Origin: a virus | Taxonomy: Duplodnaviria; Heunggongvirae; Uroviricota; Caudoviricetes | Direction: 5' to 3' (one strand) | DNA length: 18,590 nt | IMG/VR virus record: IMGVR_UViG_2703718776_000018 | Shown: piece by piece, positions 5,869 to 18,590 of the stretch | Position numbering within the stretch: the first letter of the stretch is position 1 | Layout of the letters: the number at the start of each line of letters is the position of its first letter | Notes under the pieces: generated by a model | What the model was told of the DNA's origin: nothing | Databases searched by the model: none | Seen by the model: the letters and a program-made list of their open reading frames with translations, nothing else | Program-made: the position numbers and the translations under genes

Positions 5869-6357
5869 TCAAAACGGAATATCGTCGTCAAAGTCCATTG
5901 GAGGTTCGTTATTAGCGTTGCTCTGAGGTTTACCGCCACCACTGTATTGCTGGTGGTTTTGAGGTTGGTTTGATTGCCCCCAGCCATTTGTGGACTGTGA
6001 ATCGTCGCGACGAGCGCCGATCATTTGCATGGTGCCGCCCTGGCTGACGATAATTTCCGTCGTGTAACGTTCTACACCGGCGTCATCTGTCCACTTACGG
6101 GTTTTAAGTTTCCCTTCGATGTAGACCTGAGAACCTTTTCGTAAATACTCACTCGCAATTTCAGCAAGTTTTCCGAACAAAACGACTTTATGCCATTCTG
6201 TTTGCTCTTTCTGTTGGCCCGTTTGCTTGTCGCGCCATGATTCATTCGTTGCGATGCTGAGTCTTCCGACCGCGCCGCCATTTGGTATATACCTGATCTC
6301 CGGGTCTTGCCCCAGGGTGCCAATCAGGATGACTTTGTTTACACCGCGTTGTGCCAC
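5869..6357 (-). CDS. ssb: Single-stranded DNA-binding protein (162 aa), GTG start
   Basis: N-terminus [20 protein letters not shown].. is a typical SSB OB-fold start. Gly/Gln-rich linker and the canonical acidic tail [14 protein letters not shown] 7 nt before the GTG at 6357. Confidence 0.92.
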
Positions 6358-6393: not shown

Positions 6394-6526
6394 AATGTAT
6401 ATCTTTGAAACGTAGCTAACAAGTGATTTGCATTATCCTGTGCCTTCTAAAGGGATCGAGTCAGTCGGTATTGGCTGTGAATGGGTGTTTGTCCTGGAGC
6501 GTAAAAAATTCGCTTATGAGGTCTTT

Positions 6527-7084
6527 ATGAAGGGAAAAACAGCCGCAGGAGGCGGTGCAATTTGCGCTATCGCGGTGATGATTACCATCGTGATGGGTAA
6601 TGGCAATGTGCGAACCAACCAGGCGGGGCTTGAGCTGATTGGTAACGCTGAAGGTTGCCGACGTGATCCATACATGTGCCCGGCGGGGGTATGGACTGAC
6701 GGGATCGGTAATACACACGGGGTAACGCCGGGTGTGCGAAAAACCGACCAGCAAATCGCCGCTGATTGGGAAAAGAATATCCTGATCGCTGAACGCTGTA
6801 TTAATCAGCACTTTCGGGGCAAAGACATGCCCGATAATGCCTTCAGTGCAATGACAAGCGCGGCATTCAATATGGGATGCAATAGCTTACGGACCTACTA
6901 CAGCAAAGCGCGAGGCATGCGAGTCGAAACGTCCATCCACAAGTGGGCGCAGAAAGGGGAATGGGTGAATATGTGTAACCATCTCCCTGATTTTGTGAAC
7001 AGTAACGGCGTGCCCCTGCGAGGTTTAAAGATTCGCCGTGAAAAAGAACGCCAGCTTTGCCTGACGGGGCTGATCAATGAATAA
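6527..7084 (+). CDS. lyz: SAR (signal-arrest-release) endolysin, T4-lysozyme family, 185 aa
   Basis: Starts MKGKTAAGGGAICAIAVMITIVMGNG (Gly/Ala-rich SAR domain with Cys13), then NAEGCRRDPYMCPAGVWTDGIGNTHG carrying the Glu/Asp/Thr catalytic residues. Matches my recollection of P1 Lyz. SD GAGG before the ATG at 6527; the ORF-track start at 6428 is a TTG over-extension. Confidence 0.95.
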   Translation: MKGKTAAGGGAICAIAVMITIVMGNGNVRTNQAGLELIGNAEGCRRDPYMCPAGVWTDGIGNTHGVTPGVRKTDQQIAADWEKNILIAERCINQHFRGKDMPDNAFSAMTSAAFNMGCNSLRTYYSKARGMRVETSIHKWAQKGEWVNMCNHLPDFVNSNGVPLRGLKIRREKERQLCLTGLINE

Positions 7085-7331
7085 ACTCCGGCAGCTCCGC
7101 CGACTTTCGACAATGAAGTTATCGCTGGCGGCGATAGTTTTCGACTCGATTTTCATGGCGGTATATGTGCTCAATGAGACGTGGCCACTGGAACCGCTAT
7201 TATATGCCGGGCTTCGGCTGTGCCTGACATTTTTGAGCATGGCTGCAAGATTGATGCAGCAGAAAGAAACCGCTTCAGATTGCCCACGTCGCGCGGTGCG
7301 CAAATATATGGCACGCAGACGAAGGCGATAA
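7077..7331 (+). CDS. Candidate small membrane protein (84 aa; one or two hydrophobic helices, poly-Arg C-terminus) translationally coupled to lyz; possible lysis accessory protein
   Basis: ATG overlaps the lyz stop (ATGAATAA). Hydrophobic stretches LSLAAIVFDSIFMAVYVL and LLYAGLRLCLTFLSMAARL; tail RRAVRKYMARRRRR. Stop at 7329-7331 is followed immediately by a terminator. Confidence 0.45.
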   Translation: MNKLRQLRRLSTMKLSLAAIVFDSIFMAVYVLNETWPLEPLLYAGLRLCLTFLSMAARLMQQKETASDCPRRAVRKYMARRRRR

Positions 7332-7342
7332 TAGTTAACGAT

Positions 7343-7370
7343 AACCCCGGCAGCCGCCGGGGTTATTTTT
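7343..7370 (+). terminator. Rho-independent terminator (stem CCCCGGC/GCCGGGG, loop AGCC, then TTATTTTT) closing the lyz transcript
   Basis: Seen in sequence between the end of the lyz-coupled ORF and the convergent protease gene. Confidence 0.75.
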
Positions 7371-7375
7371 GATGG

Positions 7376-10106
<2,731 letters not shown>

Positions 10107-17659: not shown

Positions 17660-17669
17660 TTTATATATC

Positions 17670-17699
17670 GGGCAGTTGTAGCTGCCCGTTAAATTTTTG
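17670..17699 (+). terminator. Rho-independent terminator (stem CGGGCAG/CTGCCCG, loop TTGTAG, then TTAAATTTTT) between convergent genes
   Basis: Seen in sequence, immediately after the lxc-like stop and before the stop of the reverse-strand 196-aa gene. Confidence 0.75.
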
Positions 17700-17710
17700 C
17701 CGCTCTTCAA

Positions 17711-18301
17711 TTACACTATATCTTTTACTATAGAATTAGCATCCTCCAGTACGCCAATTTCTTCGATGCGTTTTTTTATTATTAATCGATTTGAAGCAAT
17801 GATTGTGGACCATCTTGTTTCCCAAGCTCTATAAGCATGCCACGAATAACCTAATCTCATTTCTTTGCTCATGTTGGACATTGAGTATTCAACGGCGTCT
17901 AAATATTCATTTTCATACTTAGTTCCACCAATTTCTAAAAGGCTGCCGAAATATATAAGCCATTTTGCAAGCTGCTCGTATTGCTCCCAAGCACCACTCT
18001 CTCTTGTTAAATCTCTTTTTTGTTTTATTATTCTCTTGAAAAAATCAACTACTTGTCCGTCATTCCAGTCGAAACCCTCAGATATAATCGAGGAGGTTAT
18101 TTGATAGAATGAATCTTCTAATCTAAGGTATTCATCCTTATAGTTGAAAGTGCCTGATAAAACTCTTTTTATACTTTGTCTGGCTCTTGCTATGACGCCT
18201 TCAATTAACATTATGTTAATGCTCAATCTCTTAAAGAAAGAGTCTATTTCGGTGTTGTCAATTACTCGTATTCCAAAACAATAAAAATAATAATCCTTCA
18301 T
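17711..18301 (-). CDS. Hypothetical 196-aa protein in an AT-rich island next to IS1; function unknown
   Basis: Uninterrupted ORF with ATG at 18301. Region 17700-18374 is markedly AT-rich compared with the darB/ulx side. No SD-like sequence stronger than AAGT upstream. Confidence 0.7.
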   Translation of the reverse strand: MKDYYFYCFGIRVIDNTEIDSFFKRLSINIMLIEGVIARARQSIKRVLSGTFNYKDEYLRLEDSFYQITSSIISEGFDWNDGQVVDFFKRIIKQKRDLTRESGAWEQYEQLAKWLIYFGSLLEIGGTKYENEYLDAVEYSMSNMSKEMRLGYSWHAYRAWETRWSTIIASNRLIIKKRIEEIGVLEDANSIVKDIV

Positions 18302-18331
18302 ATCTTGACTTACTTCACTGCGAGAGATGAA

Positions 18332-18348
18332 AAATATATTAGAGCACA
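18332..18348 (-). promoter_or_regulatory. Candidate C1-repressor-type operator (reverse strand reads TGTGCTCTAATATATTT) upstream of the 196-aa gene
   Basis: 14/17 match to the recalled consensus ATTGCTCTAATAAATTT with a perfect TGCTCTAATA core. Lies 31-47 nt upstream of the ATG at 18301. Confidence 0.4.
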
Positions 18349-18374
18349 GAGCGTTACCTTTCGAGAATATTTTG

Positions 18375-18590
18375 TAATCATTTATGGTAATGACTCCAAC
18401 TTATTGATAGAGTTTTATGTTCAGATAATGCCCGATGACTTTGTCATGCAGCTCCACCGATTTTGAGAACGACAGCGACTTCCGTCACAGCCGTGCCAGG
18501 TGCTGCCTCAGATTCAGGTTATGCCGCTCAATTCGCTGCGTATATCGCTTGCTGATTACGTGCAGCTTTCCCTTCAGGCGGGATTCATAC
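18375..18590 (-). mobile_element. IS1, partial: terminal inverted repeat and 3' portion of the transposase gene; the element continues beyond the window end
   Basis: From 18375 the forward strand reads GGTAATGACTCCAACTTATTGATAG.., the IS1 terminal repeat. The reverse complement through 18590 matches the IS1 3' region I recall (..CTGCATGACAAAGTCATCGGGCATTATCTGAACATAAAAC..). Confidence 0.9.
18390..18590 (-). CDS. insB: IS1 transposase InsB, C-terminal part (runs off the window end)
   Basis: Reverse-strand frame ends ..[17 protein letters not shown] with the stop at 18390-18392, the characteristic InsB C-terminus. Confidence 0.85.

Follow-up and report, generated by a model that had tools for sequence, protein, structure and literature searches.

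The lysis gene lydD has been part of the P1 and P7 annotations since the early 2000s, and experiments published in 2022 showed its product to be a pinholin (Bednarek et al. 2022, PMC9025707). The study used P1 mutants and plasmids with the lyz operon of P7; the P7 version is the one closest to the DNA analyzed here. Mutants with deletions and insertions were made, lysis kinetics were followed, lydD was co-expressed with lyz from plasmids, and lyz was replaced by lambda R. The addition of lydD to lyz made lysis faster and more complete, and lydE made no difference. Plaques were obtained from the lydA lydC mutant and none from the lydA lydD double mutant; therefore, LydD with Lyz is sufficient on solid medium. 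When lambda R took the place of lyz, LydD could not support lysis, and the result was the same in a two-plasmid system. The loss of lydD shifted the lysis morphology from the pattern of a SAR endolysin with a pinholin to the canonical pattern. In shaken liquid cultures of E. coli, LydD is accessory and LydA is the main holin: a lydA mutant with intact lydD did not lyse, and the loss of LydD delayed lysis (PMC9025707). The conclusion was that LydD is a pinholin and partner of the SAR endolysin Lyz (PMC9025707), and lydD was listed as "pinholin" in a later paper from the same group (PMC10067587). In a genome-wide CRISPRi screen, lyz was essential, while lydD and lydE, a frame nested in lydD, were non-essential (PMC10695390).

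Here, the lyz locus of a P1/P7-type (Punavirus) segment is described and compared with these systems. The segment is a stretch of 18,590 nucleotides from the IMG/VR virus record IMGVR_UViG_2703718776_000018, and the whole stretch is called the window. It shows 99% identity to Escherichia phage vB_EcoM-Ro157c2YLVW over 91% of its length, and 98% identity to SJ46 and P1.

Structure of the lyz-lydD operon

The features around lyz are listed in Table 1. The sequence of the late promoter LPlyz has no differences from the annotated LPlyz of P1 and P7. Lyz is the same protein as Lyz of P7 and is one residue off Lyz of P1. It matches Pfam Phage_lysozyme (2e-22) and the endolysin family phrog_7 (2e-68). 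Hydropathy indicates that its residues 6–24 form a Gly/Ala-rich, weakly hydrophobic, N-terminal signal-arrest-release (SAR) segment. The operon is bounded by the convergent neighbour pro/proB.

Table 1. Features of the window at and around the lyz-lydD operon.
Feature	Position	Strand	Basis or remarks
ssb	5869–6357	−	
LPlyz, late promoter of the lyz-lydD operon	6421–6439	+	-22 box AAGTGATTT, -10 TATCCT; annotation transfer
lyz, SAR endolysin, 185 aa	6527–7084	+	sequence and family matches
Shine-Dalgarno-like GGGG	7066–7069	+	7 nt 5' of the lydD ATG, within the lyz end
lydD, 84-aa pinholin	7077–7331	+	P1/P7 identity, phrog_21930, dN/dS, hydropathy, AlphaFold2, PMC9025707
"lydE" frame, GTG start, 63 codons	7181–7372	+	nested in lydD, other frame, runs through the terminator hairpin
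Intrinsic terminator of the lyz-lydD operon	7342–7370	+	10-bp GC-rich stem, 4-nt loop, TTTTT
pro/proB (head processing), convergent	7376–8395	−	P1/P7 annotation at the homologous position and ORF list

An ORF of 84 codons beginning inside the lyz stop had been predicted, and the frame was confirmed. The 3' end of lyz reads AAT GAA TAA, and the ATG of lydD lies inside these codons, so that the two genes overlap by 8 nt (ATGAATAA). The frame ends with a TAA stop, and the encoded protein is MNKLRQLRRLSTMKLSLAAIVFDSIFMAVYVLNETWPLEPLLYAGLRLCLTFLSMAARLMQQKETASDCPRRAVRKYMARRRRR.

A translation signal was looked for upstream of this ATG. The GGGG in the lyz end pairs with the 3' end of 16S rRNA with a duplex energy of -6.2 kcal/mol, which is roughly in the top 12% of window positions. 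A Shine-Dalgarno (SD)-like element was found 5' of Met1 in every lineage examined, including Cronobacter phage JK004, a P1-like plasmid of Salmonella Newport, and the homologues from Aeromonas phages, with energies from -3.7 to -9.3 kcal/mol. The element of the Aeromonas phages is GGAGG (-9.3).

The ORF was also said to end just before an intrinsic terminator, and this agrees with the folding analysis. The stem TAACCCCGGC/GCCGGGGTTA occupies positions 7342–7365 with the loop AGCC, starts 10 nt past the lydD stop, and is followed by TTTTT at 7366–7370. The region 7325–7380 folds at -28.3 kcal/mol (z = -5.6), and 0 of 200 shuffles were as stable. A simple terminator scan did not list a plus-strand site 3' of lydD, but folding shows the hairpin clearly. 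P1-like contigs of IMG/VR keep the hairpin. At this place, JK004 and the Salmonella plasmid carry another stem, and a T-run comes after it.

Identity and annotation of lydD

The LydD protein of the window is 100% identical at the amino acid level to the P1 protein AAQ13988.1 and the P7 protein AAQ07492.1, which are encoded at the same position. The lydD CDS is annotated at this place in P7 (AF503408) and P1 (AF234172, AF234173, and NC_005856) with the label "lysis determinant D; putative holin", and the flanks, LPlyz, lyz, terminator, and convergent pro, are the same as in the window. The nucleotide sequence of lydD shows 5 synonymous differences from P1 and is identical to P7. LydD matches the "holin" family phrog_21930 over residues 1–84 of 84 (E = 9e-59), and no NCBIfam model matches it. 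Judging from these identities, the ORF is the already known lydD and not a new gene. The original prediction, which took the ORF to be unannotated in P1, was incorrect on this point.

The annotation of lydD is inconsistent among public records. Megablast of positions 6400–7450 against phage records returned 19 full-length matches with 97.6–100% identity. The records that leave lydD uncalled include that of the 100%-identical phage vB_EcoM-Ro157c2YLVW; the 100%-identical MH160767.1 has only "lysozyme" and "ProB" under the match. Among the matches listed, most RefSeq P1-like plasmids show "lysozyme" only. Some records name lydD an antiholin (MH422554.1 and NZ_AP018809.1). Since many records leave lydD uncalled, the lapse of the original prediction is understandable.

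Conservation of the lydD frame

As many as 28 ORFs of at least 30 aa overlap the 2.5 kb stretch around lydD. The length of 84 codons alone is not beyond chance, and therefore conservation in relatives was tested. In both JK004 and the Salmonella Newport plasmid, the lydD frame is open with 84 codons. The dN/dS ratio of lydD is 0.06 against JK004 (69 of 255 nt differ, 42 of these 69 at codon position 3) and 0.09 against the Salmonella plasmid (72 of 255 nt differ, 42 of these 72 at codon position 3). The changes in codons 4–12, which lie outside the lyz overlap and 5' of Met13, are mostly synonymous, and this argues for translation from Met1.

Conservation across P1-like genomes had been suggested as a check, and the frame was not disrupted in the relatives. 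It is intact in all 80 P1-like contigs in IMG/VR, which represent 41 distinct nucleotide sequences, and the ATGAATAA junction is kept in every one of them. The only length variation in these contigs is in-frame and affects the terminal Arg run (RRR to RRRRR). Among the plasmids of PLSDB, LydD is encoded by 495, of which 469 show at least 99% identity and 494 cover at least 80% of the protein. A 2-nt insertion truncates LydD in the plasmid CP042641.1. The Salmonella plasmid has another stop/start overlap, ATGA, and thus the coupling between lyz and lydD is preserved by a different sequence. From this pattern of substitution, lydD is a real gene whose frame is under purifying selection.

Two other readings were considered: that the ORF is open by chance, or that the coupled regulator is in truth the nested lydE. 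In their favour, lydD is passed over by many automated annotations, and P1 records label lydE "putative antiholin". The probability of either is nonetheless negligible: against a chance frame stand the dN/dS of 0.06–0.09 and the intact frame in 80 of 80 contigs, and against lydE stand the features of that frame itself. The dN/dS of lydE in its own frame is 2.2–3.0. The frame is 71 aa long in P1 and SJ46 and 63 aa in the window and P7, but it is cut to 40 aa in JK004 and to 32 aa in the Salmonella plasmid. lydE matched nothing in PHROG or Pfam. The dS of lydD is 1.7–2.2 in the part overlapped by lydE and 1.7 to saturation upstream, so that the overlap imposes no reduced synonymous rate on lydD. 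The removal of lydE caused no lysis phenotype (PMC9025707).

lydE as a coupled regulator was rejected on account of dN/dS above 2, truncation in relatives, the lack of a family match, the lack of a phenotype (PMC9025707), and non-essentiality in the CRISPRi screen (PMC10695390). It is probably not a functional gene.

Translation start of lydD

Phage 21 S21 (71/68) and lambda S (S107/S105) suggest by analogy a dual start, in which Met1 would give an 84-aa antiholin and Met13 a 72-aa pinholin. Every homologue in the alignment has this Met13, even the 38%-identical Aeromonas protein, in which it is numbered Met17. Initiation at Met13 would also drop the four N-terminal positive charges, which are seemingly incompatible with an S21-like mechanism. 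The translation signals point the other way. The internal ATG is without an SD-like sequence in all six lineages (+1.9 to -2.2 kcal/mol, where the background mean of the window is -2.6). Met1 is always preceded by one, in the range given above. The two ATGs are 36–48 nt apart, which is too far for one common SD. Codons 4–12 are under purifying selection, and therefore the long form is the selected product. Two start sites are for these reasons considered very unlikely. The dual-start hypothesis was rejected, given the missing SD at Met13 in six lineages and the purifying selection on the N-terminal extension.

Membrane architecture of LydD

Hydrophobic helices and a strongly basic tail had been predicted, and both are present. 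Kyte-Doolittle hydropathy, averaged over 19 residues, gives two hydrophobic segments at residues 15–33 (mean 1.89) and 41–59 (1.42), separated by the short acidic loop ETWPLEP. Helix 2 is marginally hydrophobic and contains two Arg. K/R account for 4 of the first 13 residues. The C-terminal tail (residues 61–84) has 10 K/R in 24 residues and ends with RRRRR. The layout of LydD can thus be described as a cationic N-terminus (1–13), helix 1 (~14–33), a loop (34–40), helix 2 (~41–60), and an Arg-rich tail (61–84).

The AlphaFold2 model, built on a shallow alignment, shows helices at residues 3–35 and 40–83 connected by a 4-residue loop. The mean pLDDT is 70 (moderate confidence), with 75–81 in the membrane core. 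This model agrees with the published description of LydD with two transmembrane domains and about 80% helix (PMC9025707). The positive-inside rule predicts a hairpin with both the N-terminus and the C-terminus in the cytoplasm.

Candidate residues for an ionic interaction within the membrane are Asp23 of helix 1 together with Arg47 and Arg58 of helix 2.

Function of LydD

It is very likely that lydD is the second gene of a late lyz-lydD operon, and that LydD is the pinholin that frees the SAR endolysin Lyz. A small membrane protein of pinholin or antiholin type, coupled to the SAR endolysin and acting in lysis timing, was what the original prediction had proposed. This was right, the type being that of a pinholin. 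The suggested deletion of the ORF with measurement of lysis timing is already published, and the loss of lydD delays lysis (PMC9025707). The gene adjoins the endolysin gene also in JK004 and the Salmonella plasmid, as does its homologue in the Aeromonas phage vB_AsaM-56, where the lysozyme is putatively of SAR type.

The proposed sequence of events is as follows. The Lpa-dependent late promoter LPlyz would drive lyz and lydD of a P1/P7-type phage or phage-plasmid. Initiation at Met1 through a weak SD and the start/stop overlap with lyz would allow LydD to be made together with the endolysin. LydD would form a helical hairpin in the inner membrane, and both its cationic N-terminus and its Arg-rich C-tail would lie on the cytoplasmic side. 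Small lesions (pinholes) made by LydD at a set time would then collapse the proton-motive force. The depolarisation would release the membrane-tethered Lyz into the periplasm in an active form, and the cell wall would be degraded. In this scheme, the topology of LydD, the size of its pores, and the way in which the holes form are inferred.

The records MH422554.1 and NZ_AP018809.1, with their antiholin label, imply that LydD is instead a negative regulator of lysis timing. Its four N-terminal positive charges could be taken in the same sense, as extra N-terminal charges turn S21 68 into an inhibitor (PMC9025707). Such a role is very improbable. The addition of lydD to lyz speeds lysis and its loss delays lysis, which is the opposite of the behaviour of an inhibitor, and LydD alone with Lyz supports plaques in the lydA lydC mutant (PMC9025707).

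The annotation "putative holin" could equally be read as a canonical, large-hole class II holin. LydD is small, has two transmembrane domains and a basic C-tail, and is called "holin" in PHROG and GenBank. LydA and LydC, the class II holins of P1, are also small proteins with two transmembrane domains, and they cooperate with Lyz (PMC9025707). LydA, LydC, and the antiholin LydB belong to the same phage lysis system as LydD, but their sequences differ from LydD. Their genes are, unlike lydD, unlinked to lyz; they lie outside the window, within the dar operon or beside it. The canonical endolysin R is supported by LydA and LydC but not by LydD (PMC9025707); canonical lambda R with LydD gave no lysis, whether R replaced lyz in P1 or was supplied in the two-plasmid system (PMC9025707). 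In addition, lydD is coupled to the gene of a SAR endolysin, an enzyme for which large holes are unnecessary. This too argues against a class II holin, and the assignment is highly unlikely. A pinholin serving Lyz is the preferred reading.

The discovery value of this locus is small, given that the annotation of lydD dates from the early 2000s and its characterisation as a pinholin from 2022. Its value lies in annotation. The gene is skipped in many records of P1-like phages and plasmids, and it could be called "pinholin LydD" consistently. The "putative antiholin" label of the nested lydE should probably not be propagated.

Comparison with other pinholins and the DUF7940 family

The pinholin S21 of phage 21 is encoded 5' of R21. 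The gene order is reversed in the lyz operon, where lydD comes after the endolysin gene. LydD and S21 68 are alike as the functional partner of a SAR endolysin. Both LydD and S21 are proteins of ~70–85 aa with two helices and a basic C-terminus, encoded by a gene adjacent to the endolysin gene. At the sequence level, BLASTP of LydD against S21 71 (the sequence used is 100% identical to the phage 21 record OL657228.1) gave no alignment at E <= 100. LydD has no match to PF04971 (Phage_holin_2_1), on which S21 71 scores 122 bits.

The architecture is also different. LydD has four N-terminal positive charges, while S21 68 has one. Helix 1 is the more hydrophobic helix in LydD (1.89 vs. 1.42), while helix 1 of S21 is weak and SAR-like (0.64 vs. 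1.72). The glycine zipper, a hallmark of the S21 family, is absent from LydD, which has a single Gly in helix 2; its absence is also reported in PMC9025707. LydD has no usable dual start, unlike S21. Membership of LydD in the S21 family was rejected because of the lack of a PF04971 match, the lack of a BLASTP alignment, and the different architecture. Since LydD is without the S21 hallmarks, "pinholin" is a functional label here, and the mechanism of LydD may differ from that of S21.

A relationship below the family cut-off was found with DUF7940 (PF25612), a Pfam family of unknown function. LydD aligned with positions 7–63 of the 63 profile positions with 22.8 bits (E = 1.4e-4), where the cut-off is 27 bits. 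LydD of JK004 (21.1) and LydD of the Salmonella plasmid (22.9) are likewise below the 27-bit gathering threshold. The protein gp03 of the Aeromonas phage vB_AsaM-56 (Popoffvirus) scores 42.2 bits on DUF7940, and the precomputed table assigns PF25612 to its relatives. gp03 is a homologue of LydD detectable by tblastn with 36% identity, and the identity to the Aeromonas proteins is 36–38% overall. The searches of protein databases reached homologues in the enterobacterial and Aeromonas clades only. A first scan of IMG/VR returned only near-identical P1-like loci. When the ranking was repeated with the Aeromonas protein, it yielded five loci of Popoffvirus-like type and a few diverged loci of P1-like type, with no further lineages. 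Based on the profile scores and alignments, LydD looks like an outlying homologue of DUF7940, which is below the threshold and not a formal member.

The locus of vB_AsaM-56 resembles the lyz operon. The gp03 gene overlaps the lysozyme gene's 3' end. The lysozyme has a Gly/Ala-rich hydrophobic segment at its N-terminus, which is a putative SAR domain. Genes for Rz-like spanins directly follow gp03 in phage 56, whereas the spanin genes of P1 are in an unlinked operon (PMC9025707) and lydD is followed by the terminator. The hairpin layout is common to LydD and the DUF7940 proteins of Aeromonas phages, although the latter (70 aa) are without the long Arg-rich tail of LydD. Ten residues are invariant in both clades: M13, D23, N33, P37, P40, Y43, R47, T51, S54, and R58 in LydD numbering.

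The link to LydD, although below the threshold, suggests a function for DUF7940, and the family probably consists of holins or pinholins. A more specific proposal, put forward tentatively and with somewhat less than even confidence, is that LydD and the Aeromonas DUF7940 proteins constitute one pinholin family distinct from that of phage 21. In these proteins, positive charges would hold the N-terminus on the cytoplasmic side, helix 1 could not exit the membrane, and holes would form through Asp23, Arg47, and Arg58. If this is true, DUF7940 could be renamed as a pinholin family, and it would offer a second model for small-hole timing besides S21.

Conservation and variation of LydD

Coordinates of features in and around lydD and at the right end of the window
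Feature	Coordinates	Strand	Remark
Asp23 of LydD	window 7143-7145		
Arg47 of LydD	window 7215-7217		
Arg58 of LydD	window 7248-7250		
LydD C-terminal arginine run	window 7314-7328		
lydE	window 7181-7372	+	putative antiholin in the P1 annotation
Aeromonas phage vB_AsaM-56 gp03, LydD homologue	L004:1189-1401		DUF7940 member
196-aa ORF	window 17711-18301	-	right end of the window

Pfam DUF7940 matches LydD (window 7077-7331) with a sub-threshold score of 22.8 bits (cut-off 27), and the LydD homologues of Aeromonas phages, at 36% identity, are true members of this family and are found in lysozyme-holin-spanin cassettes. Based on this match and the setting of the Aeromonas phage members, DUF7940 may be a holin or pinholin family. 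Three charged residues within both predicted membrane helices, Asp23, Arg47, and Arg58, show no variation across the range from P1 to Aeromonas phages; they may constitute an intramembrane salt bridge relevant to hole formation.

The arginine run at the C-terminus is variable in length and always in frame among the 80 P1-like IMG/VR contigs. RRRRR is the form in 57 contigs and RRRR in 14, while RRRSR (4), RRRKR (3), and RRR (2) are also observed. The variation in the length of this run may tune lysis timing. At the junction of lyz and lydD in a Salmonella Newport plasmid (NZ_CP077703.1; L005:1201-1204), ATGA, a 4-nt overlap of stop and start, is present in place of ATGAATAA. The translational coupling of lydD to lyz is thus kept in this plasmid via a different sequence.

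Among the relatives seen, lydD is disrupted only in the plasmid pNCYU-24-74-3 (CP042641.1; L007, about 1370-1380), where a 2-nt insertion truncates the protein at 59 aa. The disruption comes from faulty sequencing or, alternatively, from natural loss of the gene; given the accessory role of lydD, such a loss could be tolerated.

Annotation of lydD and lydE

Many deposited annotations of P1-like phages and plasmids do not include lydD, such as MH160767.1, which is 100% identical to the window across 6400-7450, OP279344.1, and many RefSeq plasmids. The lydE frame shows no sign of coding constraint, with dN/dS of 2.2-3.0 in its own frame. Its length differs among relatives (32, 40, 63, or 71 aa), and in the window it crosses the terminator hairpin. 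The lydE annotation, which is being propagated, is probably spurious.

Ends of the window

The P1 backbone is left at both ends of the window, at 1-832 and 17669-18590. The left end matches SJ46 and vB_EcoM-813R1, not P1, and both phages carry an IS200/IS605-type transposase at the matching stretch. The right end, beyond lxc, has no match in the best phage hits, and no Pfam match was found for the 196-aa ORF encoded there. The site of this ORF is variable; P1 has res/mod at this site, while SJ46 has a RelA/SpoT-family gene.
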